A stretch of 64,000 nucleotides of DNA. Source: Squalus acanthias. Its lineage: Eukaryota. Position numbers and translations under genes: made by a program. The stretch is taken from assembly GCA_030390025.1 (NCBI GenBank), contig CM059431.1:133612001-133676000 (forward strand), in the 5' to 3' direction. Positions within the stretch are counted from its first letter, which is position 1, and each line of letters begins with the position of its first letter. Below are positions 13,095 through 48,492 of this stretch, piece after piece. The notes under the pieces were generated by a model. That model was given only the letters and a program-made list of their open reading frames with translations. It made no database searches and was not told where the DNA came from.

Positions 13095-15878
13095 CTATCT
13101 TTATCTTGTAGCTGATAAATCAGTACTCCCCCACTGAACACCATTTGGAAGCAGCATTGAGGGTTGCAAGAGAACAGAATGTACTCTGGATAAGGGACTT
13201 CAATGTCCATCACCAAGAGTGGCTCGAGCTGTCCGAGTCCTAAACGACATAACTGCCAGACTGGGCTTTCGGCAGGTGGTGAGAGAACCAGCACGAGGGA
13301 AAAACTTATTTGACCTCGTCCTCACCAGTTTACGTGTCACAGATGCATCTGTCCATGACAGTATTGGTAGAAGTGACGACCGCATCTTCACAATGAGGAC
13401 ACCCTCCACTGTATTGTGCGACACTACCACCGTGCTAAATGGGATAAATTCAGAACAGATCTAGCTGCTCAAAACTCCCAAACCCGCGACCTCCACCGCC
13501 TAGAAGGACAAGGGCAGCAGGCGCTTGTGAACACCATCACCTCCAAGTCACACACCATGCTGACTTATATTGCCGTTCCTTCATCTTCGCTGGGTCAAAA
13601 TCCTGGAACTTCCTCCCTAACAGCACTATGGGAGTACCTTCAACACATGGACTGCAGCGGTTCAAGAAAGTGGCTCACCACAACCTTCTCAAGGGAAATT
13701 AGGGATGGGCAATAAATGCTGGCATTGTCAGTGATGCCCACATCCCATGAACGAATAAAAAAACAAAAAAAACTGGCATCCATGAGGGGCTGTGGACCAT
13801 CAGCAGCAGCAGAATTGTATTCCACCATAATCTGTAACCTTGTGGCCCAACATATCCCTCACTCTACCATTACAATCAAGCCAGGTGACTAACCCTGGTT
13901 CAATGAAGAGTGTAGAAGAGCATGCCAGGAGCAGCACCAGGCATACCTGAAAATGAGGTGCCAACGTGATGAAGCTACAACACAGGACTACATGCATGCT
14001 AAACTGCAGAAGCAGCATGCTATAGACAGAGCTAAGTGACCCCACAATCAACGGATCAGCTCAAAGCTTTGCAGTCCTGCCACATCCAGCCATGAATGGT
14101 GATGGAAAATTGAACAACTAACGTGAGGAGGAGGCTCTGTGAACATCCCCATCCTCAATGATGGTGGGACCCAGCACGTGAGTGCAAAAGACAAGGCTGA
14201 AGTGTTTGCAACCATCTTCAGCCAGAAGTGCCGAGTGGATGATCCATCTCGGCCTCTTCCTGAAGTATCGAGCATCACAGATGCCAGTCTTCAGCCAATT
14301 CGATTCACTCCACGTGATATCAAAAAACGGCTGAGCGCACTGGATACAGCGAAAGCTATGGGTCCTGACAACATCCTGGCTGTAGTGTTGAAGACCTGTG
14401 CTCCAGAACTAGCTGTGCCTTTAGCCAAGTTGTTCCAGTACAGCTACAACACTGGCATCTACCCGACAAAGTGGAAAAATGCTCAGATATATCCTGTCCA
14501 TAAAAACCAGGACAAAATACAAAGTCAATTACCGCCTCATCATCCTATTCTCAATCATCAGCAAAGTGATGGAAGGCATCATCGACAGTGCTATCAAGCA
14601 GCACTTATGCACCAATAACCTGCTCGCTGATGCTCAATTTGTGTTCCGACTGGCCCAACTGGCTACAGACCTCATTGCAGCCTTGGTCCAAACATGGACA
14701 AAAGAGTTGAATTACAGAGATGAGTTGAGAGTGACTGCCCTTGAAATCAAGGCAGCATTTGACCAAATGTGGCACCAAGGAGGCATAAAATTGAAGTCAA
14801 TGGGGATCACAAGAAAAACTATCCACTGGCTGGATTCATACCTAGCGCAAATGAATATGGTTGTGGTTGTTGGAGGCCAATCATCTCATCTCCAGGACAT
14901 GGCTGCAGAAGTTCCTCAGAGCAGTTTCCTAGGCCCAACCATCTTCAGCTGCTTCATCAATGACCTTCCCTCCATCATAAGGTCAGAAGTGGGGATGTTC
15001 GCTGATGATTGCAGTGTTCAGTTGCATTCGCAATTCCTCAGATAATGAAGCAGTCCATGCCCACATACAGCAAGACCTGGACAACACTCAGACTTGGGCT
15101 GATAAGTGGCAAGGAACATTCACGCCACACAAGTGCCAGGCAATGACCATCTCCAACAAGAGAAAGTCTAACCACCTCCCCTTGACATTCAATGGCATTA
15201 CCATCATCGAATCGTCCACCATCAACATCTTGGGGTCACCATTGACCAGAAACTTAACTGTACCAGCCCCATAATAACTGTGGCTACAACAGCAAGTCAG
15301 AGGCTGGGTATTCTGTGGCAAGTGTCTCACCATTTTGACTCTCCAATACCCTTCCACTACCTACAAGCTACAAGTCAGGAGTGTGATGGAATACTCTCCA
15401 CTTGCCTGGATGAGTGCAGCTCCAACAATACTCAAGAAGCTCAACACCGTCCAGGACAAAGCAGCCCGCTTGATTGGCACCCCATCCACCACCTTAAACA
15501 TTCACTCCCTCCACCACCTGCGCACCGTGTACCATCCAGAAAATGCATTGCAGCAATTCCCAAGGCTTATCGATTGCACTTCCCAAACCCACAACCTCTA
15601 ACACCTAGAAGGACAAGGGCAGCAGGCACATGGGAACACCATCATCTCCAAGTTCCCCTCCAAGCCACACACCATCCTGACTTGGAAATATATTGTCGCT
15701 GGGTGAAAATCTTGGAACTCCCTACCTAACAGTACTGTGGGAGTACCTTCACCACACGGACTGCAACAGTTCAAGAATGTGGCTCACCACCACCTTATCA
15801 AGGGCAATTAGAGATGGGCAATAAATGCTGGCCTTGCCAGTGACACCCACATTCTGCAAATGAATAATTAAAAAAAAA
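13095..15878 (+). mobile_element. CR1-group LINE of the tRNA-headed family, 5'-truncated and decayed, with nested self 3' fragment (~13476-13768)
   Basis: KAMGPDNI, FINDLPSIIRSEVGMFADDC, QVRSVMEYSPLAW; tail GGGCAATAAATGCTGGCC plus A-run; colinear with 43490-45956. Confidence 0.9.
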
Positions 15879-16060
15879 ATGTTGTAGAGGAAACTATCAT
15901 CAAATTTGCCTAACTTACACACTGTATTTAATTAACTTTTTTTTAATTTGTTTATGGGATGTGGGCATCGCTGGCAAGGCCAGCATTTATTGCCCATCCC
16001 TATGTGCCAGTGGAGCATTTTCCCCAATTCCCATTGACTTCAGTATTACTAGGGCTCCTT

Positions 16061-16609
16061 CCTCTTTTGATAAACCAACAACTGTAACTCAATAAAACTT
16101 TAAAGGAAACTTAAATTAAATTAAAATTTGGTGGTCCGGGGTGACGATGCACTCCAGTCCCCACGGCGCCCACCGGTCGCGGAAAAACTCAAGCGTGCCG
16201 GTGGACACCACGTGCTCCATCTCCAGGGCCACCCGGGCGCGAACATGGCCGCGGAAGAGAGGCAGGCAATCGGGCCGAACGACCCCCTCGACCGCCCGCT
16301 GCCTGGACCAATTAATGGCTTTCTTAGCCAGGCCCAAGAGCAGTCCCACGAGGAGGTCCTCCGACCTGCCCGCTCCCCTCCGCACCGGGTGACCGTAGAT
16401 CAGGAGCGTGGGGCTGAAGTGCAACCAGAAATTGAGGAGCAGCCCCTTCAAGTAATGAAAGAGGGGCTGCAACCTCTCACACTCTACATAAACATGAAAC
16501 ACGGACTCTTCCAGGCCGCAGAAATGGCAAGCGGCCTGGGAGTCCGTAAACCTACTTAACAAACTATTGCACGGGACTGCTCCGTGCAACACCCTCCAGG
16601 CCAAATCCC
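16061..16609 (-). mobile_element. Tx1/L1-clade LINE 3' fragment (C-terminal zinc-knuckle region)
   Basis: DLAWRVLHGAV..CHFCGLEESVFHVYVEC; 14-bp TSD TACTAGGGCTCCTT at 16047-16060 and 16610-16623. Confidence 0.88.
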
Positions 16610-18229
16610 TACTAGGGCTCCTTGATGCCACACTTGGTCAAATGCTGCCTTGATGTCAAGGGCAGTCACTCTCACCTCATGCTCAATATATTGTTCCAAC
16701 TGTATAATGCTAATGCCTGTCAAGATTTATAAACGTGGGAATTTAAGTTTTTTCAGATGCAGTTAATAATCCATTTGTAATTATCTTAACTTTATGCATC
16801 AAGTTAGATGTAGATGTCATACTCAATTAACATATATTTGATAACAACCTATTAAGATTATAAAGCTGAGTTTTAGTATTAAAGGAGCAAGTATTAAAGC
16901 AATTAATCTTATTTACATATGTAAATTACATTGAAGCAGCAGTTTCATTAATATTCTATTATTAAGCAGATTTTCAGAAGTTTATCCCAAAGTTGCTTCT
17001 TCTAATTTCATTTTGCCCTAGTTGCTCCTATACTTTGACTATGTTCAAACTGTAGAATTTGAAAAATGCAATGCATGAAAGTGTTTAACTTTTGTACAAT
17101 AGTTTTAATACTGGTAAAAGGGACAAGTGGTGAAGTTCAACACATTTTGTTTCTTTCAGAACAAGGTATGGAGCAATGTCATTTCTTTCTTCTCGGACAA
17201 AGGCTTACAGTGGTGCAACAGAAATGAGGTCAGCCAAAAGCATGGGAACGGCACCAAAACAATTTGATAAAAACTCATATGTTTAACAAAAGCTTTGCAT
17301 TAAAAGAAAGATGGAGATGTAATGCTTATTTAATCAACTCCAGTTCACAGGAAGATTTCCTTTCACTCATAAAATAACCTAATAACATTTACTGTTCACA
17401 ATGACTGCAAAAACTGCAAAATACAGGCTTTGTAAAATGTGCTAATTCATTTTCCTTTACAAAAACCTTCACCCTTATTTAGTTAATTTCACCTAAGAAC
17501 CTAGTATTATTACTGACATTTTTGAAAGATGTAAAACGTGATGGTACTGTACATTTGTTATTTTCACATAAAATTACACTGAATGCTAAGGTTAACTTGC
17601 AACCGCTATAAATAGATTTCTGTATTCATGGGAATGAGAGAACAATAAATAGTTTACTGCCAAATATCAAAACTTCCTTTTGAACCCTAAGTGACTGATT
17701 ATGTAAGGTTGTCTGGCAGTGACTGGAAATGCTAAACTACCTTATTTTCCACTAGTTAATGCCTATTATACCTGGATTGTAATGTCATTTCAGTCTATTC
17801 ATACCTTTGATAATTGGCATTTTTAAGGCAAAAAAATTAAATTAATGCAACTACTACCTCTGATTGGAGAATAAATAGAACAGTGACAGATAGCATCTCT
17901 CTCCAGATATCTCCTTCCTCATTTAAAACAAATGGATGAAGGTCCAGAAATGCAAGTAAGGTTCATTGTTCACTTGATTGCATTCCATCTTTATTTCTCA
18001 ACCCTTGCATACACTTGTCCACAGTGGGTAATGTACTACCACCTTTAACCAGAAAATAAATGACTTGCCAAAACTTTGAATCGTGCCAGGTTGACCCAGT
18101 TACCCTCTAGGTAATGCTTTATTACTGAGTTGATTTTGCAATTTTGTAAAGAAAAACATTCAGAAAGTTGTGAAGTCATTGTACAGTTCTGCTCATAGTA
18201 CATACAAGAGATTTAATTGGGTTTTACAT

Positions 18230-19800
18230 TGAATTACATAGAATATACAGCACAGAAACAGGCCATTCGTCCCAACTAGTTTCTGCTGGTGTTTATACTC
18301 CACACGGGTCTCCTCCCATTATATCTAACACATCTCAGCCTTCCAGCATATCATTCTATTCCCTGTTCTCTCATGCACTCATCTAGTTTCCTTTTGAAAG
18401 CATCTAAGCCATTTACCTTAACTACTTCCTGTGGTAGCGAGTTCCACATTCTAACCACTCTGAATAAGGAAATTTCTCCTTATTTACACAGGAGCATAGG
18501 TACAGGAGTAGGTCATTTAGCCCCTCGAGCCTGTTCCGTCATTCAATGAGATCATGGCTGATCTGTGACCTAACTCCATGTACCCGCCTTTGCCCATATC
18601 CCTTAATACCTTTAGTTAACAAAAAGCTATCAATCTCAGATTTAATATTAACAATTGATCTAGCATCAATTGCCATTTGCAGAAGAGAGTTCCAAACTTC
18701 TACCACCCTTTGTGTGTAGAAGTGTTTCCTAATTTCACTCCTGAAAGGTCTGGCTCTAATTTTCAGACTCTGTTCCCTAGTCCTAGTCTCCCCAACCAGC
18801 GGAAATAGTTTCTCTCTCTCTACCCTATCTGTTCCCCTTACTATCTTGAAAACTTCGATCAGATCACCCCTTACCTTCTAAATTCCAGGGAATACAACCC
18901 TAGTTTGTGTAATCGCTCCTCATAATTTAGCCCCTGGAGTCTAAGTAACATTCTGGTAAACCTATGCTGTACTCCCTCTAATATATCCTTCCTAAGGTGT
19001 GGTGCCCAGAACTGCTCACAGTACTCCAGGTGTGGTCTAACCAGGGCTTTGTACAGCTGCAGCATAACTTCTACCCCCTTGTATTCTAGTCCTCTAGATA
19101 TAAAGGTCAGCATTCCATCAGCCTTCTTGATTATTTTCTGTACCTGTTCATGACATTTCAATGATCTATGTACCTGGATTCCCAAGTCTCTTTGGACCGC
19201 CACAGTTTTTAGCTTTTCACTATTTAGAAAGTACCCTGTTCTATCCTTTTTAGGTCCAAAATGGATGACCTCACATTTGCCTACATTGAAATTCATTTGC
19301 CACAGTTTTGCCCATTCACTTAATCTATCAACCTCTCCAACCCATTCATAATTTTAAATATCTCTATCAGATCACCTCTAAGTCTTCTTTTTATAAAGAA
19401 AAAAGCCCCAACCCATTCAAATTTTCCCGATAGCTGTATTCTCTCAGTTCTGCTACCAGCTTTGTAAATCTTTTTTGCACTTTCTCCACTGCTTCTATTT
19501 CCCTTTTATAGTATGGATACCAGAGCTGTGCACAGTACCCTAAGTGTGACCTGACCATGGTCCGATACAAGTTTAACATAAATTCATTATTTTTGAATTC
19601 TATACCCCTAGATATAAATCCCATTGCTTTGTTAGCATTTTTAATTGCTTGGCTAACCTGCAAAGCTGCTTTCAATGATTTGTTCCCTTTGCTCTTCTAC
19701 CCCATTCAGTTTCTTATTTGCTAAGATGTAGATGATGTTTCTATTTTTCCTACTAAAGTGTATCACCTCACATTTATCTGTTAAAGTTAATTTGTCACTT
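18230..19800 (-). mobile_element. Cluster of three CR1 3' fragments (~18230-18480, 18486-19330, 19331-19800)
   Basis: ORFs 18871..19296 and 19391..19675 with KCEVIHF and LVRPHLEYC motifs. Confidence 0.85.
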
Positions 19801-20889
19801 AACTGCCCAGGTTTCTTACACAGTTGCATATCCATTATACAGATGAAGTCCAAATAGCGAAGATCTAAATTGCACTGGATCAAAATAGGTGTTTATAATA
19901 AATGCACACTGTACTTTTTCAAAAGCATTGTTTGGGAGTTACACAAAACATGTTACAGACTGCATATATTATATAAAAATATTTATATGGACTAGTCCTT
20001 AAACACAATATCACTGTTATGAGAGGATATGAATGTTACATCAGAGAAAAGAACTTGCTGTCTATTGATAACAATCATGCCAAACAGTTTCAGAGAAAGT
20101 AAAAATATCTCCCCAGCTTTCATCTTTTGGGTTTGTAAGATATATTTCTCATTTGGAAATTTTCTGCTTCATTTGAGGTTACTAGTGGTACTATTATAAA
20201 AGCTAAGTTCACATTCAAACAGCCAACACAAAGAATAGCTTGCCATGGGATACCTCACCTCTCGCCCTCAATTACTTCCTTCAATTGATGAAAGATGTTG
20301 GTTTCTAGACATTCATACAACCCATCTATTAGGACTCTGATCTGGTGAATGAGCAGACTATTTATGCTTACTCACCCATTGCATCTTTAGGAAGTCACGC
20401 ACATGCTGTGACATACCATTTGTTTCTTGCAATAATGATGTGATGCGGAACTCCTTCCCGACATTCTGGTTGCAGATCAGATTTGGTGCTTCTGGCATAT
20501 GTCCTTATAGACATGTCTCTCCATAAGACAGTGGAAGCCTTTATACTAATATCATTTGCCACAACAAAAATGTCACATAATAGGCAGCTAATTGAGTATT
20601 ATTGATTGATGGTTTAATGAAGTGGAGAAAGCAGCAAGTTTAAGGTCAGTTATAAATTGTCTGAAACAGCTAATTTGTCAACATTAGTGCAGAGTAAGCC
20701 TGTCTCTGTTCCGAAGAAGGTGCGGTAGGTTGTGATCCTGGCCCAAAACTGACTGCAGACTTTGTGAAAAGGATCAGGTCCTGCAGCTGATTATTCAAAA
20801 AACAAAATGACTTTTGCTGAAGTAGTCTGAAAACAACAGCTACTGTATTTTTTTTAAACAAAAACAAACCAATATGTCGAAATAAACTT

Positions 20890-21133
20890 TGAAGGAAAAA
20901 TGGCTGTCGGATGTCATGAAAACCCAACTGGTTCATTAATATCCTTTAGGGAAGGAAACCTGCCATCCTTACCTGGTCTGGCCTATATGTGACTCCAGTG
21001 TCACCAATGTGGTTTACTCTTAATTGCCCTCTAAAGTGGCCTAGCAAGCCACTCAGTTGTACCAAACCTGGGATGGGCAATAAGTGCTGGCATTGCAAGC
21101 AATGCCCACATCTCGAGAATGAATTAAACAAAA
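20890..21133 (+). mobile_element. SINE-like internal-deletion derivative of the tRNA-headed LINE (5' leader joined to 3' tail; tRNA head missing here)
   Basis: 20900-21056 aligns with 42935-43092, then joins directly to GGGATGGGCAATAAGTGCTGGC, the LINE 3' tail. Confidence 0.8.
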
Positions 21134-21389
21134 GAATTGGGCCACTGTGTCCATCCTCACCTCCAACAACATGTATGAGGAGCTTATCTACTTCTTTGTC
21201 TCGAAGATTGAGACCATCCGTTGAGACTGTCTCTGCCGCTTCCCTCCCTTCATCCAGCCCACCAAGCCAAACCTCCCCAGGTTCCCCCTGCCCTAGTCTT
21301 CAACTTGCATCTTTCTCTAGTTTCTCTCTTATCTCCCTTCATGCCCTCTCCGAGCTCATCTTGTCCATGATCCCTCGACCCTATTCCCA

Positions 21390-22176
21390 CAGAAAGGCAG
21401 ACTATTATCTGAATGGCAATAGATTGGGAGAAGGGGAAGTGCAACGAGACCTGGGTGTCCTTGTGCACCAGTCGCTGAAAGTAAGCATGCAGGTGCAGCA
21501 GGCGGTGAAGAAGGCAAATGGTATGTTGGCCTTCATAGCGAAAGGGTTTGAGTATAGGAACAGGGATGTCCTGCTGCAGTTGTACAGGGCCTTGGTGAGA
21601 CCACACCTTGAGTATTGTGTGCAGTTTTGGTCGCCTTATCTGAGGAAGGATGTTCTTGCCATGGAGGGAGTTCAGCGAAGATTCACAAGGCTGATACCTG
21701 GGATGGCAGGAATGACATATGAGGAGAGATTGGGTCGATTGGGCTTATACTCGCTGGAGTATAGAAGAATGAGAGGGGATCTCATCGAAACATATAAAAT
21801 TCTGACAGGTCTGGACAAACTAGATGCAGGAAGAATGTTCCCGGTGGTCGGAGAGTCCAGAACCAGGGGTCATAATCTAAGGATAGGGGGTAAGCCATTT
21901 AGGACAGAAATGAGGAGGAATTTCTTCACCCAGAGAGTGGTGAACCTGTGGAATTCTCTACCACAGAAGGTAGTTGAGGCCAAGTCATTAAATATATTCA
22001 AGAATGAGTTAGATATATTTCTTAAAGCTATAGGTATCAAGAGATATGGGGAGAAGGCAGGGACAGGGTACTGAGTTTGGATGATCAGCCATGATCTCAT
22101 CGAATGGCGGAGCAGGCTCGAGGGGCCGAATGGCCTACTCCTGCTCCTATCTTCTATGTTTCTATGTTTCTATGTT
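21390..22176 (+). mobile_element. Young CR1 3' fragment
   Basis: Uninterrupted ORF2 C-terminus to 22074; (TTCTATGT)n tail; CCCAC on both sides. Confidence 0.92.
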
Positions 22177-26930: not shown

Positions 26931-29867
26931 TCAGTACCCCATTCCTGCTTTCTCGCCATACCCCTTGATCCCCCTAGTTGTGAGTGTTATATCTAACTCC
27001 CTTTTGAATATATTTAGCGAGCTGGCCTCAACAACCTTCTGTGGAAGAGAATTCCATAGATTCACCACTCTCTGGGTGAAGAAGTTCCTCCTCAGCTCAG
27101 TCTTAAATGGCTTCCCCTTAATCCTTAGACTGTGACCCCTGGTTCTAGTTTTCCCTAACATTGGGAACATTCTGCCCGCATCTAATTTGTCTAAACCAGT
27201 TAGGATTTTAAATGTCTCTATAAGATCCCCCCTCATTCTTCTGAACTCCAGAGGATACAAGTTCAGTTGACCCAATCTTTCTTGATATGTCAGTCCGGCC
27301 ATCCCAGGAATCAATCTAGTGAACCTTCGCTGCACTCCCTCAATAGCAAGAATGTCCTTCCTTAAGTTAGGAGACCAAAACTGCGCACAATACTCCAGGT
27401 GTGGCCTCACCAAGGCCCTGTACAACTGCAGCATCACCTCCCTACTCCTGTACTCAAATCCCCTTACTATGAAGGCCATCATTCCGTTTGCTTTCTTGAC
27501 TGCCTGCTGCACTTGCATTCCCACCTTCAGTGACTGATGTACCATGACGCCCAGGTCTCGTTGCACCTCCCCTTTCCCTAATCTGCCACCATTCAGGTAA
27601 TAGTCCGCCTCTCTATTTTTACCACCAAAGTGGATAACCTCACATTTATCCACATTGTACTTCATCTGCCATACATTTGCCCATTCACCCAATCTGTCCA
27701 AGTCACTCTGTAGCCTCCTAGCATCCTCCTCATTGTTCACACTGCCTCCCAATTTAGTGTCATCCGCAAATTTGGAGATATTACATTTAATCCCTTCGTC
27801 CAAATCATTAATATATAATGTAAACAGCTGGGGTCCCAGCACCGAACCCTGCGGTACCCCACTGGTCACTGCCTGCCATTCTGAAAAGTACCCATTTACT
27901 CCTACTCTTTGTTTCCTGTGTGCCAACCAGTTCTCAATCCACGTCAACACATTACCCCCAATCCCATGTGCTTTAATTTTGCTCACCAATCTCTTGTGTG
28001 GGACCTTGTCGAAGGCCTTCTGAAAGTCCAAATACACCACATCTACTGGTTCCCCCCTGTCCACCCTATTGGAAACATCCTCAAAAAATTCCAGAAGATT
28101 TGTCAAGCATGATTTCCCTTTCACAAATCCATGCTGACTTGGACCTATCATGTCGCCACTTTCCAAATGGTCTGTTATGACATCTTTAATAATTGCTTCC
28201 ATCATTTTACCCACGACCGATGTCAGGCTGACCGGTCTATAATTCCCTGCTTTCTCCCTCCCTCCTTTTTTAAAAAGAGGGGTTACATTGGCCACCCTCC
28301 ACTCCATCGGAACTGATCCAGAGTCTAAGGAATGTTGGAAAATGATCGTCAATGCATCCACTATTTCCAAGGCCACCTCCTTAAGTACTCTGGGATGCAG
28401 ACCATCAGGCCCCGGGGATTTTTCAGCCTTCAGTCCCATCAATTTCCCCAATACCTTTTCCCGACTAATAAGGATTTCCCTCAGCTCCTCCCTCTTACCA
28501 GATCCTCTGACCCCTTTTATTTCCGGCAGGTTGTGTGTGTCCTCCACAGTAAATACCGAACCAAAGTACTTGTTCAATTGATCTGCCATTTCCTTGTTCC
28601 CCATTACGACTTGCCCTGTTTCCGACTGCAGGGGACCTACGTTTGTTTTTACTAACCTCTTTCTTTTTACATATTTATAGAAGCTTTTGCAGTCCATTTT
28701 AATGTTCTCTGCAAGCTTCCTTTCATATTTTATTTTCCCTGCCCTAATCAAACCCTTCGTCCTCCTTTGCTGAGTTTTGAAGTTCTCCCAGTCCCTGGGT
28801 TTGCTGCTACTTCTGGCCAATTTGTATGCAACTTCCTTGGTTTTAATACTATCCCTGATTTCCCTTGTTAGCCATGGTTGAGCCACCTTCCCTTTTTTAT
28901 TTTTACACCAGACCGGGATGTACAATTGTTGTAGTTCATCCATGCGATCTCTAAATGTCTGCCATTGCCCTTCCACTGATAGCCCCTTAAATATCGCTTG
29001 CCAATTTAACCTCGCCAATTCACGCCTCATACCATCAAAGTTGCCCTTATTTAAGTTCTGGACCATGGTCTCTGACTTAACTGTTTCCTTCTCCATCCTA
29101 ATGTAGAACTCCACCATACTATGGTCACTCTTCCCCAGGGGGCCTCGTACCACAAGATTGCTGATTAGTCCTTCCTCATTACACAACACCCAGTCCAGGA
29201 TGGCCTCCCCTCGAGTTGGTTCCTCAACATATTGGTTTAGGAAACCATCCCTTAAACACTCCAGGAAATCCTCCTCCACCGTATTGCTTCCAGTTTGAGT
29301 AGCCCAATCTATATGCATATTAAAGTCACCCATGATAACTGCCGTGCCTTTTTTGCATGCACCTCTGATTTCCTGTTTCATACCCTCCCCCACCTCACTA
29401 CTGCTGTTTGGAGGTCTGTACACAACTCCCACTAACGTTTTCTGCCCTTTGGTGTTCTGCAGCTCAACCCATATTGATTCCACATCCTCCAAGCTGATGT
29501 CCTTCCTAGCTATTGCATTAATCTCCTCTTTAACCAGCAATGCTACCCCACCCCCTTTTCCTTTTATTCTATCCTTTCTGAATGTTGAATACCCCTGGAT
29601 GTTCAGTTCCCAGCCTTGATTGTTCTGGAGCCACGTCTCTGTAATCCCAATCACATCGTATCCGTTAACATCTATTTGCACAGTCAATTCATCCACCTTA
29701 TTACGGATACTCCTTGCATTAAGACACAGAGCCTTTAGGCTTATTTTATTAACATCCTTTGTCCTTTTAGACTTATGATTTAGTATGGCCCTTTGTGTTT
29801 CTTGCCTTTGTTTACTCGGCCTTCCCCTATTGTTTCTCACCCTTCTAACATTTGTTTCTGACTGCAT
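26931..29867 (-). CDS. CR1 ORF2: AP endonuclease + reverse transcriptase, 978 aa, uninterrupted
   Basis: NARS, GITETW, VYRPP, MGDFN, SDH (APE); YLDFQKAFD, GVPQGSVLGP, KFADD (RT). Confidence 0.95.
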   Translation of the reverse strand: MQSETNVRRVRNNRGRPSKQRQETQRAILNHKSKRTKDVNKISLKALCLNARSIRNKVDELTVQIDVNGYDVIGITETWLQNNQGWELNIQGYSTFRKDRIKGKGGGVALLVKEEINAIARKDISLEDVESIWVELQNTKGQKTLVGVVYRPPNSSSEVGEGMKQEIRGACKKGTAVIMGDFNMHIDWATQTGSNTVEEDFLECLRDGFLNQYVEEPTRGEAILDWVLCNEEGLISNLVVRGPLGKSDHSMVEFYIRMEKETVKSETMVQNLNKGNFDGMRRELARLNWQAIFKGLSVEGQWQTFRDRMDELQQLYIPVWCKNKKGKVAQPWLTREIRDSIKTKEVAYKLARSSSKPRDWENFKTQQRRTKGLIRAGKIKYERKLAENIKMDCKSFYKYVKRKRLVKTNVGPLQSETGQVVMGNKEMADQLNKYFGSVFTVEDTHNLPEIKGVRGSGKREELREILISREKVLGKLMGLKAEKSPGPDGLHPRVLKEVALEIVDALTIIFQHSLDSGSVPMEWRVANVTPLFKKGGREKAGNYRPVSLTSVVGKMMEAIIKDVITDHLESGDMIGPSQHGFVKGKSCLTNLLEFFEDVSNRVDRGEPVDVVYLDFQKAFDKVPHKRLVSKIKAHGIGGNVLTWIENWLAHRKQRVGVNGYFSEWQAVTSGVPQGSVLGPQLFTLYINDLDEGIKCNISKFADDTKLGGSVNNEEDARRLQSDLDRLGEWANVWQMKYNVDKCEVIHFGGKNREADYYLNGGRLGKGEVQRDLGVMVHQSLKVGMQVQQAVKKANGMMAFIVRGFEYRSREVMLQLYRALVRPHLEYCAQFWSPNLRKDILAIEGVQRRFTRLIPGMAGLTYQERLGQLNLYPLEFRRMRGDLIETFKILTGLDKLDAGRMFPMLGKTRTRGHSLRIKGKPFKTELRRNFFTQRVVNLWNSLPQKVVEASSLNIFKRELDITLTTRGIKGYGEKAGMGY

Positions 29868-29914
29868 ATTACTTCCCCCTGTTTCGCTACATAGGTTCCC
29901 CTTCCCCTGCCATA

Positions 29915-30439
29915 TTAGTTTAAATCCTCCCGAACTGCTTTAGCAAATATTACCCCGAGGACATCGGTTCCAGTCCTGCCCAAGTGCAGACCGTCCCTTT
30001 TGTACAGGTCCCACTTCCCCCAGAACTGGTTCCAATGCCTCAGGAATTTGAATCCCTCCCTCCTGCACCACTGCTCAAGCCACGTATTCAATCTCACTAT
30101 CCTGTTCTCTCTATTCTGATTAGCTCGTGGCCCTGGTAGCAATCCAGAGATTACTACCTTAGAGGTCCTACTTTTTAATTTAGCTCCTAGCTCCCTAAAT
30201 TCTGCTTGTAGGACCTCTTCCCGCTTTTTACCTATATCGTTGGTACCTACATGCACCACGACAGCTGGCTGTTCACCCTCCCTCTTCAGAATGTTCTGCA
30301 GCCGCTCCGAGACATCCTTGACCCTTGCACCAGGGAGGCAACATACCATCCTGGAATCTCGGTTGCGGCCACAGAAACTCCTGTCTATTCCCCTTACAAT
30401 TGAGTCCCCTATCACTATAGCCCTACCACTCTTTTTCCC
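29915..30439 (-). CDS. CR1 ORF1 C-terminal SGNH/GDSL esterase domain (partial)
   Basis: VIGDSIVRG, CLPGA, HVGTND, DGLHL. Confidence 0.9.
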   Translation of the reverse strand, partial: GKKSGRAIVIGDSIVRGIDRSFCGRNRDSRMVCCLPGARVKDVSERLQNILKREGEQPAVVVHVGTNDIGKKREEVLQAEFRELGAKLKSRTSKVVISGLLPGPRANQNRENRIVRLNTWLEQWCRREGFKFLRHWNQFWGKWDLYKRDGLHLGRTGTDVLGVIFAKAVREDLN

Positions 30440-31586
30440 GTATACAGGGCAAAATTTCAAAATTTGCAGATGACACAAAACTCGGAAATGTAGTAAACAA
30501 TGAGGATAGTAACAGACTTCAGGAGGACATAGACAGACTGGTGAAATGGCCAGACACATGGCAGATGAAATTTAACACAGAGAAAAGTGAAGTGATACAT
30601 TTTGGTATGAAGAATGAGGAGAGGCAATATGAACTATATGGTACAATTTTAAAGCGGGTGCAGGAACAGAGGGACCTGGGGCGTATGTACACAAATCTTT
30701 GAAGGTGGCAGGATAAGTTGAGAAGGCTGTTGAAAAAGCATATGGGATCCTTGGCTTTATTAATCAAGGAATAGAATACAAAAGCAAGGAAGTTATGTTA
30801 AACCTTTATAAAACACTGGTTAGGCCTCAGCTGGAGTATTGTGTTCAATTCTGGGCACCACACTTTAGGAAAGATGTCAAGGCCTTAGAGAGGGTGCAGA
30901 CGAGATTGACTAGAATGGCACCAGGGATGAGGGAAATCAGTTCTCTGGAGAGACTCAAGAAGCTGGGGTTGTTCTCCTTAGAGCAGAGAATGTTAAGAGG
31001 AGATCTGATAGAGGTGTTCAAAATCATGAACGGATTTGCTAGAGTAAATAAGGAGAAACCGTTTCCAGTGGCAGAAGGATCGGTAACCAGAGGATACAGA
31101 TTTAAGGTGATTCGCAAAAGAACCAGAGGTGAAATGAGGAAACATTTTTTTATACAGCGAGTTGTTGTGATCTGGAATGCACTGCCTGCAAGGGCAGTGG
31201 AAGCAGATTCAATAGTAACTTTCAAAAGAAAATTGGATAAATACTTGAAGGAAAAAAAAATTACAGGGCTATGGGGAAAGAGCAGGGGAGTGGGACTAAT
31301 TGGATAGCTCTACCAAAGAGCTGGCACAGGCATGATGGGCCAAATGGCCTCCTTCTGTGCTGTATCATTCTATGATTCTATGAATACAGGCCTCTGCCAA
31401 CTGTTTTCATGTACAGCACCCACATGGTGCATGTTTCTGTCTTCTCAACACCTATGGCTAACACCTCAATGTATGCGATGCCACTAATGTCAACTACTAA
31501 ATACATGCCTCTGCTTTTGTAGGAGAAGAGAGTGCATGGAAAGAGGTAGAATATGAGAATGAGGGTTGGATCAGCAAAGTTGTATC

Positions 31587-33756: not shown

Positions 33757-34800
33757 TTTTTTTTATTCGTTCCTGGGATGTGGGCGCCGCTGGCATGGCC
33801 AGCCTTTATTGTCCATCCCTAATTACCCTTGAGAAGGTGGTGGTGAACAGCCTTCTTGAACCACTGCAGTACACGTGGTGAAGGTACTCCCATAGCGCTG
33901 TAAGGGAGGGAGTTCCAGGATTTTGACCCAGCAACTATGAAGGAACGGCGATATACTTCCAAGTCAGGATGGTGTGTAACTTGGAGGGGAACTTGGAGGT
34001 GAAGGCCTGCTGCCCTTGTCCTTCTAGGTGGTAGAGGTCGCGGGTTTGGAAGGTGCTGTCGAAGAAGCCTTGGCGAGTTGCTGCAGTGCATCTTGTAGAT
34101 GGTACACACTGCAGCCACGGTACGCCGGTGGTGGAGGGAGTGAATGTTTAAGGTGGTGGATGGGGTGCCAATGAAGCGGGCTGCTTTGTCCTGGATGGTG
34201 TCGCGCTTCTTGAGTGTTGTTGGAGCTGCACTGATCCAGGCAAGTGGAGAGTATTCCATCACACTCCTGACTTTTGCCTTGTAGATGGTGGAAAGTCTTT
34301 GGGGAGTCAGATGGTGAGACATTCGCCATAGAATACCTAGCCTCTGACCTGCTCTTGTAGCCACAGTATTTATGTGGCTGGCCCAGTTAAGTTTCTGGTC
34401 AATGGTAACCCCCAGGATGTTGATGTTAGGGGATTTGGCGATGGTAATGCTGTTGAATGTCATGGGCGGTGGTTAGATGCGCTCTTGTTGGAGACAAGCC
34501 TGAATGTCGTCCAGGTCTTGTTGTATGCGGGCATAGACTGCTTCGTTATCTGAGGAGATGTGAATGGAACTGAACACTGTGCAAACATCAGCAAACATCC
34601 CCACTTCTGACCTTATGATGGAGGGAAGGTCATTGATGAAGCAGCTGAAGATGGTTGGGCCTAGGACACTGCCCTGAGGAACTCCTGCAGTGATGTCCTG
34701 GGGCTGAGATGATTGGCCTCCAACAACCACAACCATCTTCCTTTGTGCTAGATATGACTCCAGCCAGTGGAGAACTTTTCCTTGGATTCCTATTGACTTC
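33757..34800 (-). mobile_element. 3' fragment of the tRNA-headed CR1-group LINE family, inside a CR1 remnant (~33495-35000)
   Basis: GVPQGSVLGPTIFSCFIND, YKAKVRSVMEYSPLAW; poly(T) on + strand at 33757. Confidence 0.88.
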
Positions 34801-35426
34801 AGGAACGGTTCCTGAATCGAGAGAACTTTGGCAGATTATAGTTAGGGCATCTGCAATGTGCTCACCTACTTCCTTTAAAACCCTGGGATGGAAACCATCT
34901 GGTCCTGGGGATTTGTCACTCTTTCATGCCATTATTTTCTTCATTACTGTTATTTTGCTTACGTTAATTTTGTTTAGTCCCTGTCCCTGATTGGGATTTC
35001 CGGCATGCGAGCAGGGAAGTGCGGGTGGCCCATGAAAGGGATGATGCTGAGAGAGGACATGGAAGTGGGGGCTCTGCTCAAACTGCTCCCGCTTCTCCCC
35101 CATTGCCTCCTCCTCAGTCAGAGCCCCACATGCTGCCTCGGATCCCGATGGCCGAGTCTGCCCCTACATAGGTGCCGTCATTGAGGAGCAGTCATTGGCG
35201 GGGCCTCACAGGCTCCAAAATGCAGAGGATGTCCGCCAAAAGTGTCTAATCAGTCAGAGCAGGGAAGTGAGCAGCCTGCCTCTACCTCTGCTGACGCCAC
35301 AGGGGGTGCACCTCGTAGAAGTAGTAGAAAAAGAAAAATGACACAATTGTAGATGCACAAGGGGCTGCACATGTGTGTTCCAAAACGTTAGAGGGTTAAG
35401 TTTCATTTGTATTTATGAGCCATATA

Positions 35427-36916: not shown

Positions 36917-37920
36917 TGAAGGGCTCCTCCAGATCTGTCCAGGCATCTGAAGCGCATCTTCGGCATCCCGAATGCTTGCTCTATTACAAATGTTGTCATC
37001 ATTTGGCTTTGATTGTAGCGCTCTTCGGCCTCATTGCTTGACCTCCTCAAGGATGTCATCAGCTATGTCTTCAGTGGATAGTCCTAGTCTCCAAGCAGCC
37101 AGCCGGTAAGTCTGGCTGGAGGTGCAAAGTGCTGAGGGAGGGTGGACTGGCACAGGATGAATGAATCATGACAGCTCCCTGGGAGTATGGTGCACATATG
37201 CATGATGATCTTTTTGTGGTTGCAGACGAGCTGCATATTGAGGGAGTATAAGCCCTTCCGGTTTATGAACGCTCCTGGGTGATCTGGGGGTGCCCCGATG
37301 AGCACATGTGTGCAGTCGATGACGCCCTGCACCTGTGGGAATCCAGCCAGAGCCGCAAAGCCGAGCGCCCGCTCCGTCACACTGGCTTCATCAGTGGCAA
37401 AGTCTACATAAATGCCTGACTTGTGAAACATGGCATCGGTCACCTGGGTGATGCATCTGTGGGCGGCCGACTGCGAGATCCTGGAAGTGTCTGCTGCAGA
37501 TCCCTGGAAGGAGCCTGAGGCGAAGAAGTTGAGGGCAGTGGTGACTTTGATAGCTGCTGGAAAGGTGTGTCCACCAGGTCCACTTGGCAGCAGGTCTTCT
37601 TCCAGCAAGCTAGAAATGTCTGCCACAACCTGATGCGATAGCCTGAGCCTCCTAAGGCACTGCTGTTCAGTCATTTCCAGGAAGCTCATCCTCTGCCTAT
37701 ATACCCTGTGTTGGGGGTATCACCTCCGACGACGTGCACCCCTGTGCGCAACCCCTCTCTCCTGTGGAGCGGCAGGTCGGTGAGGAGAAAGCTGCTGCTG
37801 CTTCTGCTGGTGTTGTTGCTGCTGCTTCTGCTGGTGTTGTTGGTGCTGGGGCTCATCTTGGTCCGAATCTGAGGTCCAAGGTGAAACAGCATACGCAGCA
37901 CCCATGCTGATCTGATAGAT

Positions 37921-38364: not shown

Positions 38365-38911
38365 TGATCTGATAGATGCCAGGGGTAAAGTGGAGATCAG
38401 TGGCACAATCCTCCAATGTAGTGAGAGTGGCTTCCGAGGTTGTAGAAATCAACTGCAAACTCCTGAAAGCAAAATCTCTACACAAATGGTGTCAGCAAGA
38501 GCCTTTCCCTTAGGCAAGGAAGCAGGTGTGAGGTGCGAGTATTTATGTGATTTTTTCAACTGTTAATTGTTCAACTCGCACAATGGCTGCTCAGCTGTCG
38601 CCTTGCTTTCACAGGTGAGGTTCAGGAAGCACCTGAATCCCGTTCACAACAAAAGCTGCAACATCAGATTCGAAAGTCTGTTAATAGTCTGTTAACGAGC
38701 TCTCAAATACTTTAATTAGGTTACCCGCCTCTCATGAGTGGGTCTCTGGCGTGCTGAGAAACGCACTGGAGTTAAAGGCAGGATGAAGGCAGCTTCCCGA
38801 CGCGCTGTCAATTTCAACGCATTTAACTACCCACCTGCTCACAAACCCACACTCTCTTCAAAGGGAAAATTCCGGCCCATGTCTTTGTCCAGGCAGAAGG
38901 GTAGGCCATTT

Positions 38912-41440: not shown

Positions 41441-42702
41441 CTTGACCAATATGTTATTGGCCCAACTAGTAAGGAGGCATTGCTGGATCTGGTGCTGGGG
41501 TCATGCCTTCGATTTTAGTATAGGTTGCTATACAGGTATAGGCATATAAACTACCAGGAAACTACCAGGAAACTTCTATGCAGCTTTTCAAAGACAGTAA
41601 AAATTGTTTCCTATTTTAAAAATTTACATTCAAAGATTTGTAGATGCTTCCCTGTCAGGAACTCATCACTTCTGCCAGTATTAGCTGATCCTGTCAGTTG
41701 CTGCGTCTCCGACAATCATGTGTAACTTATCCCAAGTACAGCAGACATCTAAATCTCGGAAACTTGGAGCTGCAACACCACTGGCGTTCACTTTGATATA
41801 TATGTAAATTAGGATACATTGGGTGAATCACAGAATGGCTGCAGAAGCGCGAGAAAACTTGAGGAAGCCTTTTAAAGGTGCACAAGTTTGCTGGGAAAGT
41901 TTCATTTGCTGTTCCAGCACGTATACCAGAAATGATTGAGAATTGTCATATTCCCAAATAAGCTAAGATACTAAATTTATATTTTGTGAGAAAAATTTGC
42001 ATTACCTTGTTGTTTTATCTTAACTGATTTTTTAATTTCCTCTTTGCTTCACTTTTTTTCTCCAGTCTTTCTCATGGATAATGATACCATAATTATTCTC
42101 TATTATGTTTCTAATTTCTACACCTATCTCCAATTTTGCCTTTGCCTCCAATCTCCCACATGTCTGCCTCAAATGTTTGCCTTACATTCCTCAAATATTG
42201 CTGCCTCACATTTTACTTATAGGTCTGCTTTTACCCTCACGCTGGTCCCCAATTTGCCATCAGGCCAACTCCACTTCAGGTATATCTGTACCTCCTTTCC
42301 TTGCTCACTTAGTTGCTACTGTCGGTGGCCAGTAATAATGGGCAATGCTGCTTGCTCTTGCTCTAACTCTCTGGCAGGAGAAAGCAAGGGGCCACTAATA
42401 GGAGGCAGAGCTATCACTGCATTATGAACATACAAACATGTGAAAAAAGGGCAAAAAAAGACCATTACGGCCATCAATGGCCATCCCATCTATTTGATAA
42501 TACAACCCAATAATTGTCTCTTAGTGAAAGTAGTTAGTAGATCTGAACTCTTGATATTTACCTATATTTCTCCCCTCTTCAGTTTGTTCTTTTGGATATG
42601 TCTTACTTATTCCTGCCAGTCCTCTAATCGTGGCTTCTTCCACCTAACTCTGCCAGTTCTGATGAAGGATATTAGTTGATCCCTTTTCAGATATTAACTG
42701 TC

Positions 42703-45700
42703 CTGCTGCAAATTTAGGGTTTTTGTCTGGTGAATGGGTGAAAACAGGCGCTAAATGGATGCTGTGCTAAAAAGAACGGCAGCATAGTGGTTATGTTACT
42801 GGACTAATAATCCAGAGGCCTGGACTAATAATCCAGAGACATGATTTCAAATCCCACCACGGCAGCTGTGGAATTTAAATTCAGTTAATTAAATAAATCT
42901 GGAATAAAAAGCTAGTATTAGTAATGGTGACAATGAAACTATTGGATTGTCGTAAAAATCCATCTGGTTCACTACTGTCTTTTAAGGTTTACTACCGTCC
43001 ATACCTGGTCTGGCCTGTATGTGACTCCAGATCCACAGCAATGTGGTTGACTCTTAACTGCCCTCTGAAAAATAGCCTAGCAAGCCACTCAGAACCGCTA
43101 CGAAAAACAATAATAAGAATAAAACCGGACGGACCACCCGGCATCGACCTTCAGACACAACAACGGCACACTCAGCCCAGTCGACCCTGCAAAGCCCTCC
43201 TCACTAACATCTGGGGACTTGTGCCAAAATTGGGAGAGCTGTCCCACAGACTAGTCAAGCAACAGCCTGACATAGTCATACTCACAGAATCATACATTTC
43301 AGCCAATGTCCCAGACTCCGCCATCACCCACCGGCAGGACAGACCCACCAGGGGTGGCGGCACAGTGGTATACAGCCAGGAGGGAGTGGCCCTGGGAGTC
43401 CTCAACATTGACTCCGGACCCCATGAAGTCTCGTGGCTTCAGGCCAAGCATGGTCAAGGAAACCGCCTGCTGATTACCACCTACCGCCCTCCCTCAGCTG
43501 ATGAATCAGTACTCCTCCATATTGAACATCACTTGGAAGAAGCACTGAGGATGGGGGACTTCAATGTCCATCACCAAGAGTGGCTTCGTAGCACCACTAC
43601 TGACTGAGCTGGCCGAGTCCTGAAAGACATAGCTGCCAGACTAGGACTGCAGCAGCTGGTGAGAGAACCAACACGAGGGAAAAACCTACTTGACCTCATC
43701 CTCACAAATCTACCTGTTGCAGATGCATCTGTCCATGACATCATTGGTAGCAGTGACCACCGCACAGTCCTTGTGGAGACAAAATCTCATCTTCACACTG
43801 AGTGTTGTGTGGCACGACCACCGTGCTAGATGGGATAGATTCAGAACAGATCTAGCAGTTCAAAACTGGGCATCCATGAGGCGCTGTGGACCATCATCAG
43901 CAGCAGAATTGTATTCCACTACAATCTGCAGCCTCATGGCCCAGCATATCCCTCACTCTACTATTACCATCAAGCCAGGGGATCAACCCTATTCAATGAG
44001 GAGTGCAGAAGAACATGCCAGGAGCAGCACCAGGTGTACCTAAAAATGAGGTGCCAACCTGGGGAAGCTGCAACACAGGACTACATGCATGTTAAAAAGC
44101 GGAAGCAGCATGCTATAGAGAGAGCTAAGTGATCCCACAATCAACGGATCAGATCAAAGCTCTGCAGTCTTGCCACATCCAGTCGTGAATGGTGGTGGAC
44201 CATTAAACAACTAACGGGAGGAGGAGGTTCAATGAATATCCCCATCCTCAATGAGGACGCAAGTGCAAAAGACAAGGCTGAAACATTTACAACCTTCTTC
44301 AGCGAGAAGTGCCAAGTGGATGATCCATATCAGTCTCCTTCTGAGGTCCCCACCATCACAGAAGCCAGTCTTCAGCCAATTTGATTCACGCCACCTGATA
44401 TCAAGAAACGGCTGAAAGCACTGGATACAGCAAAGGTTATGGGCCCTGACAACATCCCGGTAGTCAGGCTGAAGACTTGTGCTCCAGAACTAGCCAAGCT
44501 GTTCCAGTACAGCTACAACACTGGCATCTATCTGACAATGTGGAAAACTGCCCAGGTATGTCCTGTCCACAAAAAGCAGGACAAATCCAATTCAACCAAT
44601 TACCGCCCCATCAGTCTACTCTCAATCATCAGCAAATTGATGGAGGGTGTCGTCGACAGTGCTATCAAGCGGCATTTACTCACCAATAACCTGCTCACCG
44701 ATGCTCAGTGTGGATTTCGCCAGAACTACTCGGCTCCAGACCATAATACAGCTTTGGTCCAAACATGGAAAAAAGAGAATTCTAGAGGTGAGGTAAGAGT
44801 GACTGCTTTTGACATCAAGGCAGCATTTGACCAAGTGTGGCCTCAAGGATCCCTAGTAAAATTGAAGTCAATGGGAATCAGGGGGAAAACTCTCCACTGG
44901 CTGGAGTTATACCTTACACAAAGGAAGATGGTTGTAGTTGCTGGAGGTCAATCATCACTAACCCCAGGACATCACTGCAGGAGTTCCTCAGGGCAGTGTT
45001 CTAGGCCAAACCATCTTCAGCTGCTTCATCAATGACCTTCCCTCCATCATAAGGTCAGAAGTGGGGATGTTCGCTGATGAGTGCAGTGTTCAGTTCCATT
45101 CACAACTCCTCAGATAATGAAGTAGTCCATGCCCGAATGCAGCAAGATCTGGATGACATTGATAAGTGGAAATAAACATTCGCGCCACACAAGTGCCAGG
45201 CAATGACTATCTCCAACAAGTGAAATTCTAACCACCGCCCCTTGACATTCAATGGCATTACCATTGCCGAATCCCCCACCATCAACACCCTGGGGGCCAC
45301 CATTGACCAGAAACTTTATTGGACCAGTCACATAAATACTGTGGCTACAAGAGCAGGTCAGAGGCTAGTTATTCTGCGGCGAGTGTCTCACCTCCTGACT
45401 CCCCAAAGCCTTTCCACCATCTACAAGGCACAAGTCAGGAGTGTGACAAAATACTCTCCACTTGCCTGGATCAGTGCAGGTCCAACAACACTCAAGAAGC
45501 TCGACACCATCCAGGACAAAGCAGCCCGCTTGATTGGCACCCCATCCACCACCTTAAACATTCACTCCCTCCACCACCGGCGCACCGTGGCTGCAGTTTG
45601 TACCATCTACAAGATGCACTGCAACAACTCGCCAAGGCTTCTTCAGCAGCACCTCCCACACCCGCGACCTCTTCCACCTTGAAGGACAAGGGCAGCAGGC

Positions 45701-48492
45701 GCATGGGAACACCACCACCTCCAAGTTCCCCTCCAAGGCACACACCATCCTGACTTGGAAGTATATCGCCGTTCCTTCATCGTCGCTGGGTCAAAATCCT
45801 GGAACTCCCCACAGTGCTGTTAGGGAGGAGTACCTTCACCACAAGGACTGCAGCGGGTTCAAGAAGGTGGCTCACCACCACCTTCTCAAGGGCAATTAGG
45901 GATGGGCAATAAATACTGGCCTTGCCACTGACGCCCAAATCCTAGGAATGAAAAATAAAGAAATGCCTGTTTTTCAGTGTGGATGCAGCACATAATTTTT
46001 GGGCTAATTGATGATCATGATTTAAACGTGCCTGCAGGCGCTGAAACCGACACCTGCACATTTAGCACTCAAGCGCTGATTAGATGCAATTTTCCTGGAA
46101 CCGTATATTTAGCCTGCCCTCACCCACTTCCACTGAAGGTATGGAGTGCGCTGGCTGGGAGAGAAGCCAACGTGGAAGGATGTAGTGAGAGGGCGCCCAG
46201 GTTCTCTGACACGGCACTGGAGGTCCTGCTGGAGGAGGTCCAGAGGAGGAGAGATGTCCTCTACCCACAGCGGGGAAGGAGGCCACAGAGGCAGCTAATG
46301 CGGTGCATGTGATAGGAGATCGCCCAGGAGGTGACAGCCAGGAGCCCTGGCCTCAGGACATGGCTCCAGTGCCGCAAGAAATGTAATGACTTGACACAAG
46401 TGGTCAAGGTAAGATCCCATCTCACAAACACACTTCTCAATAACCGCACCACCACCTCCAGCATCACAACCTCAACATACTTCATCCACCATCTAACTAT
46501 ACACTGACATTCATACACCCCACACTATTGCATCCTTCACCGGCACCACTCACACAGACACATCTTACAGCTCTTCAACCATGTGAGGTATCACACAGAT
46601 GCAAACACACCTATCAATACACTCATTCACTATCACCACTCTTTCTCTTCCAGGACAAGATAGCACATAACAGGTGCCAGCAGGACCTGACCAGGGGAGG
46701 GGAAGCACGTCTGCAAGACATCACCCCTCTTAAGGAGGCAGTGCTGGCCTTGATTGGAGTGGGGGTGGGGGAGTGGCAGACACTGTGGCTAGAGGCAGAG
46801 CAGGGGGCTAGAGGTTTGTGGCCACTCCGTGTTACTTAGAGATGCACAACTATTCCTGATCCCTAATTCCCCAAACCTATCCTCACTCCCAAGCTCCATA
46901 TGGTCTCATCACACACATCCTCAGCCATATGCGCTGCACCCTAACCCTTCTAGCTTTATCATTGCAGCCTCCCAGAAGCAAAATCCATCTCGCATCCCCC
47001 CTGGAGCAAGTGCAAGACGAGCAAGAGCCATCTCACGCACCCGCCTCCACCTTGGTCCGTGGCTTGACACAGAGCCTGGAACCCATCCTCTCCAGCATGG
47101 AGAGGCTGGCCAATTCCAGCCAGCAACCTGTGGAGCCCAACATTATGCAACGTCTGATGACTAAGGTCGCAGCTTCCAATCCAGTCATTGCAGCTTGCAT
47201 AGAACGACATAGTGCTGCAATGGAAGCCCAATCAGCTTCCGTTGCACTACTTGTGTCTCTATGGAATGGCAAAGTGCTGCAATGGAAGCTCAGGCAGCTG
47301 CCATGGTGGTTCTGAGCTCTTTGGTTGAAAGGGGCTTGCAGAGTGTCTCCAATGGCCAGAGATCTGTCCTCCACCAGATTACTGGGCGGGCTGAACAGAG
47401 GCCCCGAGGTAGTGGTGTGGGAATTTTGGAGCAGGAACCTACTGGCCTCTCTCCGGATACCAGCATTGCTGCTCCCTCCCCCGCCCTTGCCGTTACCTGT
47501 CAGCCAGGTGGCCCAGACTGCTCAAGCCCATGCTGAAGTGGTGCAGTCTGAGGCGGGGCCATCACGGCCCACAGCCTCTCGAGGCCATCGCAGGAGGACA
47601 TCTGAACTGCCCTTTTGAGAATCTCAGCAGCCATCCATCTCACCTGCTGCTGCCACTAGGGTTGCACTTCACAGAAGCACCAGATTAGGCACTTATAGAT
47701 AGCCACTAAGGGTAAGCATCAGGGTGAATAGTTTAATATTGGTTAGTTGTGTGATGTTTCCATTGTTTGATTGTGCTGCAAATAAAGTTTGATGATGGTA
47801 ATTGGGTATTGGTGGAATTGGTGGTCTTTTTTATCGTGGTCCTCATGGGGAAGGAGTTGAAAGGATTGAGTGCAGATGATAAACTGCCTGATGGATCCTA
47901 AGTCATGGAAGGTACATCATGTGGCAACAGTGCACCGGAGTCTGATGGTGGAGCACATTTCTCTAAAGCGCTCTTCAATTAGATGGCGGAAAGCATCCAT
48001 CCCAGTTGTGGGCCGTCTACCTGGAAGCCTCTGGTGCTCCCCCTGGTTCCCCTCCTCTGCCTCCCCTCTTCTGTCTCCTCCTCCTCTTCCTCCTTCTCCT
48101 CTTCCTCCTTCTCCTCTTGACCCTCTGGCACAGTTGCTGGTGGTAACGGATCATGACCGTCAGATTGTGGAGCATGCATCAAATCACCCCGAATGTGGAC
48201 ACCCTCTCAGCCGAGTACTGCAGGACACCTCCCGAACAGTCAAGACATCTAAACTGCTGCTTCAGGACCGCAATGGTCTTCTCAACGATATTCCTGGTGG
48301 CTGAGTGACTCTCATATTATGAGTGCTCAGCTGGTGTCTGGGGGTTTCTCAGAGGAGTCATGGGCCATGGCATCAGAGGATATCCCTTGTCACCTAGTAG
48401 CCAACCATGCATATTGTGTTCGGGCTCAAAGATCTGTGGGACGGATGACTGTCTCATTATAAACGCATCATGGCAGCTTCCTGGGTAGCATC
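42703..48492 (+). mobile_element. PIF/Harbinger transposon D: 3-exon Myb gene on + (~46171-46408, 46654-46813, 46968-~47730), transposase 3' part on - (~47980-48490)
   Basis: [39 protein letters not shown]; left end interrupted by the LINE at 42777; right part cut by CR1; left boundary tentative. Confidence 0.78.
42777..45956 (+). mobile_element. Apparently full-length single-ORF CR1-group LINE with a tRNA-derived 5' head (ORF decayed)
   Basis: A-box-like AGCATAGTGG, anticodon-arm-like hairpins, B-box-like ATTTCAAATCCC; APE (NIWGL, DIVILTES, YRPP, MGDFN, SDH); RT (FDIKAAFD, GVPQGSVLG, FADE); 3' tail; AAAGAA at both ends. Confidence 0.85.

Follow-up and report, generated by a model that had tools for sequence, protein, structure and literature searches.

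A coding LINE family with a tRNA-like head in a shark genome: sense-strand terminator scarcity as modest support for transcription by RNA polymerase III

The textbook division of retroelements holds that long interspersed nuclear elements (LINEs) are coding and transcribed by RNA polymerase II (Pol II), whereas short interspersed nuclear elements (SINEs) do not code for protein and rely for transcription on RNA polymerase III (Pol III) (PMC5786205, PMC10886601). Among the closest described systems are the pairs Bov-tA/Bov-B and SINE2-1_ACar/Vingi-2_ACar, in which a tRNA head, a LINE 5' part and a LINE 3' tail are combined in a SINE mobilised by the LINE (PMC4494074, PMC5786205); LINE-derived middle parts are, in the account of PMC5786205, found only for RTE and Vingi. 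Here we describe a tRNA-headed LINE family in a 64-kb stretch of contig CM059431.1 of Squalus acanthias (the window, to which all positions refer), which is built of the same parts but differs from those pairs in that the coding element itself bears the head, while in the published descriptions only the SINE has a head and the LINE is regarded as a Pol II element. Head, body, endonuclease and reverse transcriptase (RT) frame, and tail stand in one unit; its SINE form consists of head and body followed by the tail; and terminators are scarce on the sense strand only. This scarcity lends Pol III transcription a support that is real, but modest and short of proof; sequence alone cannot show the polymerase.

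Other systems share single features with the family. The TRIMp3 elements Cassandra, Helenus and Ajax are likewise non-SINE retroelements with a Pol III promoter, but they are of the long terminal repeat (LTR) type, non-coding and 311-1263 bp in length (PMC10886601), whereas the present family is non-LTR, coding and 3.3 kb long. LINEs of the Jockey group lacking the first open reading frame (ORF1) have a comparable endonuclease and RT frame, 3' stem-loop and 5'-truncated copies, but not the head with A and B boxes and the terminator-poor sense strand found here. HE1, listed as a V-SINE partnered with HER1 in sharks and rays (PMC3747384), resembles our case as a tRNA-headed SINE sharing its tail with a LINE in a shark-type genome, the difference being that this family has no V domain: the consensus motif given in the supplement of PMC6887750 matches only 55613-55635, within a separate V-SINE which has no match to the head or body of the family. 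Identity with HE1/HER1 was consequently rejected and, because the V domain is absent and the tail of the V-SINE matches the ordinary CR1, the family is most likely distinct from that pair. A literature search yielded no paper on a tRNA-headed coding LINE or on terminator avoidance in one, although Ogiwara 1999/2002 and Repbase/Dfam, outside that search, could hold a consensus.

Anatomy of the tRNA-headed LINE family

The family, very abundant in the shark-type genome, is represented in the repeat-rich window by three main copies (table 1), a SINE form and short further pieces, the sisters being 84-90% identical to copy A; a protein search also found exonised bits of it in shark proteins. A preliminary description of this DNA had reported a 2.8-kb copy at 13095-15878, which proves to be a headless copy of 2.48 kb enclosing a nested piece of 293 bp, although the run of four T (T4) noted within it stands. 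As in non-LTR retrotransposons generally, copies are anchored at the 3' end and truncated at the 5' end, with A-rich or repeat tails. Endonuclease and RT lie in one frame, as in APE-RT LINEs, given the RVT_1 match (Pfam, E 1.7e-15) and a frameshift-aware alignment of copy A to protein P0002 over 913 columns (839 codons, 7 stops, 5 segments); the endonuclease fragment alone had no Pfam match. We take 'CR1-Zenon-like' as a possible label for the family, a lead only. The family is not CR1 in the strict sense: it has no esterase ORF1, and its RT protein, 35-37% identical to invertebrate single-frame LINEs vs 24% to the CR1 of the window, is far from vertebrate CR1. A 'CR1-Zenon-like LINE' has been reported in whale shark (10.1101/443036).

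Table 1. Features of the tRNA-headed LINE family and comparators in the window
Feature	Positions	Strand	Remarks
Copy A, near full length	42778-45958	+	Sole copy with head in the window
tRNA-like head, copy A	42778-42870	+	A box 42780-42790, B box 42844-42854, D arm, anticodon arm twice
Body common to LINE and SINE form, without V domain	42871-43092	+	79% match to 20912-21056
Linker, A-rich then GC-rich, between body and endonuclease	43093-43178	+	Arg-rich in the endonuclease frame
Endonuclease and RT, single decayed frame	43179-45899	+	Frameshift-aware alignment to P0002
3' double stem-loop and A-rich tail, common to all copies and SINE form	45860-45958	+	Fold z -3.24; alignment
Copy B, headless, 5'-truncated, interrupted by nested piece	13110-15878	+	13110-13475 plus 13769-15878 = 2.48 kb
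Family-derived 3' piece of 293 bp, nested in copy B	13476-13768	+	Possible short target duplication
Copy C, 3' kilobase	33757-34801	-	No T4; two TGTTT without sister support
SINE form, 5'-truncated: body joined directly to LINE tail	20912-21135	+	Sequence matches
T4 private to copy A	42980-42983	+	Three T in the SINE-form sister
T4 private to copy A	44807-44810	+	Leu of L-D-I-K motif changed to Phe
T4 private to copy B	15333	+	Both sisters without T4
CR1 comparator, intact ORF2 and esterase ORF1	26931-30571	-	24% protein identity to family
True V-SINE, perfect A and B boxes	55535-55850	+	Tail matches CR1; four TTT, no T4, no TVTTT

The head of copy A carries the pair of boxes expected of a tRNA-derived, SINE2-type promoter, each with one mismatch and 64 nt apart (box scan). 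Since shuffled 64-kb strands contain 0-3 chance pairs of such quality per strand, the weight of this finding rests on the position of the boxes at the 5' end of the family, which is marked at 42781 by the start of 645 loose contig ends in public run X7. When 121 nt were searched with the Rfam tRNA model, the head reached 18.8 bits (E 0.074; gathering score 29), the match covering the D and anticodon arms; ARAGORN found no tRNA at the head, nor did a window-wide Rfam scan give a tRNA match there. It does fold stably (z -3.7). The junction of the SINE form, from about 43070 to 45856-45889, occurs in contigs of all four public runs. Head and frame are joined also beyond copy A, data of other species included, because one contig of run X1 bridges body and frame (43024-43268) and two proteins predicted from another source, P0020 and P0025, extend out of body or linker into the endonuclease, P0020 aligning from 43104, within the linker. 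RNA-labelled public runs contain 7-26% of the words; neither strand nor start nor polymerase can be read from contigs.

No ORF1 was found between head and endonuclease in copy A, where there is no room for one. Three in-frame ATGs are present, but indels separate them from the endonuclease, and the linker, examined in this one copy, has no notable fold (z 0.11) and no ribozyme or IRES-like fold (internal ribosome entry site). The A-rich segment 43093-43125 directly follows the part of the body that the SINE form has in common, and may represent the former tail of a SINE that fused with the 5' end of the LINE. At 15801-16011 two family tails lie head to head in a long inverted repeat; a microRNA considered at this place was rejected, the Rfam plant microRNA scores being far under the cut-offs and the sequence being that of the two opposed tails.

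Terminators on the sense strand

In mammalian cells, termination is reported at 65% for TTTT, 50% for TCTTT, 42% for TATTT, 20% for TGTTT and near 100% for longer runs, with minor termination at TTT and TCTT (PMC8466645). As TTTT and TVTTT are stated there to be the shortest terminators, TTVTT and TTTVT are presumably non-terminating and can serve as look-alikes. A recount confirmed two T4 runs on the sense strand of copy A, one in copy B and none in copy C, and the alignments likewise bear out that each run faces a sister copy without T4 (one sister at 42980, two at 15333). It had been suggested that the consensus may have none: indeed no T4 is common to all the copies that cover its position, but a second copy is available for only 2600 of the 3173 columns. 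The run at 44807 can be ascribed to decay because it replaces with Phe a motif Leu that is invariant in 7/7 relatives. When the decay of a T4-free parent was simulated, 2.3-3.5 new T4 runs arose in the 7168 nt of the copies, where three are observed. Among the 40 of 242 majority differences listed for public shark-like contigs, none falls at the T4 sites and 13 are changes to T, which in no case make a run longer than three (about 17 further changes to T per run lie outside these 40); in 27 of 33 listed cases the majority change is shared by the sister copies. On the evidence of the three copies, the T4 depletion appears ancestral.

The asymmetry between terminators and look-alikes points in the same direction. 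TVTTT is absent from copy A, occurs once in copy B and twice in copy C, and never has the support of another copy of the window; two TTVTT sites recur in two of the three copies. Within the in-frame codons of the real copies, T4 and TVTTT together number 4 vs 10.7 expected (5 with the run at 15333, which lies in a trimmed margin; the copies are not independent), while TTVTT and TTTVT number 9 vs 8.8. No T4+ run (four or more T) or TVTTT is supported by two copies, 573 of the 3173 columns being single-copy, and significance varies with the null. The scarcity was confirmed to be restricted to the sense strand, the antisense having 19 T4 and no depletion. Elsewhere in the window, 444 overlapping windows of equal size on both strands, mostly richer in T, have a minimum of 8 T4 and TVTTT, against 2 in copy A. 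From the published efficiencies (PMC8466645), read-through is predicted at 0.12-0.64 for the decayed copies vs about 1e-7 for the CR1 and for the related LINE at locus L001. The contrast with CR1 had, however, been overstated in the claim of many T4 runs for its ORF2: this 2.9-kb ORF lies on the minus strand, and its sense strand carries 5 T4+ runs, the figure of 26 belonging to the antisense (+) strand.

No single copy is significantly depleted in T4 (P 0.06-0.16 by base shuffles, 0.17-0.32 by dinucleotide shuffles); 2 T4 in 3173 nt of copy A vs 5 in 2934 nt of the CR1 ORF2 gives P 0.20, and 0 vs 5 gives P 0.024. For a family estimate, ties were drawn at random 500 times, giving 185 draws with no T4, 267 with one and 48 with two; a zero-T4 draw was used for the tests, given the private nature of the T4 runs and the simulation of decay. 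This estimate falls below the 5.2 T4 expected from base composition (P 0.010) and the 3.6 of a dinucleotide model (P 0.033), while runs of four A, C or G show no deficit relative to base composition. TTT itself is already scarce in the family, although alone it is no effective terminator and the V-SINE keeps its four TTT in 316 nt. Codon tests on 807 codons, one segment of which contains some frame error, predict 2.7 T4 by synonymous shuffle of the family's own usage (P 0.037), 3.8 by its own third-position frequencies (P 0.014), and 4.8-5.3 by the usage of relatives or CR1 (P 0.002 and 0.0005). The family is therefore below its own shuffle, but codon usage explains about half of the deficit. 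A general avoidance of U dinucleotides was rejected as a trait of the family, the TA ratio being equally low in L001 and the Penelope element (0.59-0.67).

A metagenome scan provided 80 LINE loci, 75 with a clean frame of at least 250 aa; after removal of 12 near-duplicates and of frames under 2 kb there remained 47 LINE ORFs, taken irrespective of a head. These have 342 T4+ runs vs 375 by codon shuffle, and a regression on them predicts 4.8-5.6 T4 for the family (P0 0.007-0.013). For the 26 ORFs matched at a T fraction of 0.19-0.235, T4 and TVTTT together range from 0.64 to 5.2/kb, compared with 0.63/kb in unedited copy A (2 in 3.17 kb). Six closer loci (L001-L004, L028, L039) have 32 T4+ runs in 11,168 nt, and the scarcity is not common to the headless relatives at hand, because each of the six has at least two. 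Only one of them, L001, has a readable 5' end, at which neither a pair of A and B boxes nor a tRNA match was found; its single frame is intact, with 7 T4+ runs, two of them T5. The element at L001 (430-3700) is from an invertebrate and has a 5' leader of about 300 nt, no ORF1 and a TAA-repeat tail. Pattern scans for further shark copies found none in metagenome or prokaryote genome contigs, protein scans gave no family match in genome or viral contigs, and a query with the N-terminal part, a weak search, found no full-length protein. The depletion proposed in the preliminary description is real and escapes the refutation named there: base composition does not explain it, codon usage explains about half of it, and the six closest relatives found do not share it.

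Proposed transcription from the head and its alternatives

How could a LINE of 3.3 kb be transcribed by Pol III? TFIIIC and Pol III would initiate at the tRNA-like head; selection would have purged T4 and TVTTT from the sense strand so that the 3.3-kb RNA finishes; Pol III would terminate at a T run in the flanking DNA; and target-primed reverse transcription would begin from the 3' stem-loop. The weakest step is the putative translation: the RNA, having no cap, would depend on cap-independent initiation, unless the protein came from a minor transcript made of the element by Pol II. We favour a family transcribed by Pol III from its head, its terminators removed by selection, and judge the chances of this to be evenly balanced. 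The fuller reading, namely an autonomous LINE that would be transcribed by Pol III from end to end, with a terminator-free frame of 2.7 kb, cap-less translation and a SINE derived by internal deletion, is more tentative and falls somewhat short of even. The terminator numbers are small, but their direction fits Pol III and lends it modest support. Were the fuller reading true, a vertebrate would possess a natural Pol III gene that codes for protein, and the LINE/SINE divide would be blurred. With a coding LINE that is very abundant, Pol III-headed and poor in terminators along its body, two questions become testable: whether Pol III naturally produces functional messages several kilobases long, and whether simple deletion within a LINE already bearing the head has given rise to some SINEs. 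The terminator count would be a footprint of selection readable from genomes alone.

Several observations weigh against transcription by Pol III. LINEs are stated to use Pol II, and the processivity of Pol III to limit length (Kojima 2024, PMC10886601); the head is below the Rfam tRNA cut-off. The family estimate derives from only three overlapping, non-independent copies, and the T4-free version chosen is the lowest of the 500 tie draws. Copy C alone has no terminator deficit, and one of its TVTTT is shown by the loose-end majority of one public run. The T4 scarcity, put forward as independent support for Pol III transcription of a coding element, is real, modest and strand-specific, with P about 0.01-0.05 per test and a trinucleotide null, expecting 1.5 T4, that survives (P 0.22). 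Of the ordinary LINE ORFs, 4/47 are free of T4, and of the 26 matched for T fraction one is T4-free and 6 carry no more than a single run; the closer relatives are richer in T (0.226-0.274 vs 0.213), only 35-37% identical in protein and in several cases decayed. The bias in Phe codons (4 TTT, 16 TTC) is no different from that in other two-fold codons (P 0.21). In the CR1 control, too, T4 runs fall short of its own codon shuffle (5 vs 9.9, P 0.017), and six control ORFs have 47 terminators vs 60.5 expected, so the avoidance of runs is partly general.

The best-surviving alternative, which we consider unlikely, is a Pol II LINE with a preference for C-ending codons and low TT and TTT, in which the missing T4 are a by-product aided by chance and the head is a captured piece of SINE that plays no Pol III part in the long element. 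The unrejected trinucleotide null, the reduction of expected T4 from 5 to 2.7 by codon usage, CCC and GGG also under their dinucleotide expectation, and an AATAAA near the 3' end of the family all speak for it, as does locus L034, with no T4 in 3180 nt at a T fraction of 0.197. But L034 carries 4 TVTTT, whereas in the family TVTTT is scarce with TTVTT at expectation; the other homopolymer runs are not depleted relative to base composition, and the same head drives the SINE form in 4/4 runs.

Distinctly improbable is a model of Pol II or read-through transcripts in which the head is a processing or translation signal setting the 5' end and U-runs are avoided against splicing or early polyadenylation. 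R2-type elements are known for 5' processing, and the stable fold of the head agrees with such a role, as do the lack of ORF1 and of a clear start, the in-frame ATGs of copy A depending on indels in head and linker. Yet both boxes are kept at a workable spacing, avoidance of splicing or polyadenylation would not predict the asymmetry of TVTTT and TTVTT, and CR1 and L001 tolerate T runs. About equally improbable is a long Pol III element that is non-autonomous, its head-bearing RNA serving as template only and a headless Pol II master supplying the protein. For it speak that uncapped RNA is a poor message, that the (weak) search found no full-length shark protein and that every copy in the window is broken. 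Against it, the frame of a mere passenger should decay within the family itself, whereas conserved residues are restored by the majority letters where checked (44807; most of the listed changes agree with the sisters, as above), and losing about 8 terminator sites with the protein kept needs long joint selection.

Neighbouring elements in the window

The CR1 comparator has an uninterrupted ORF2 of 1002 codons and its esterase ORF1 at 29915-30571. The V-SINE at 55535-55850, likely of the HE1 kind, is inserted in a Harbinger-like region. Transposase fragments, which we take to be Harbinger-like, lie at 37084-37719 (-), 56976-57515 (-) and 59344-60288 (+), with 0-1 T4 run each and neighbouring Myb-like frames. 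Just upstream of copy B, and in the opposite direction, a tRNA-headed SINE fragment occupies 12956-13076 (-; A box 13070, B box 13027), with another at 6417-6542; the fragment is unrelated to the tRNA-headed LINE family and presumably Deu/SacSINE1-like. At 58-2007 (+) an RT and GIY-YIG-type frame runs for 649 codons without a stop, and is, to judge from its motifs, presumably Penelope-like. Finally, a GC-rich, near-perfect hairpin of about 64 nt is present at 11627-11690.

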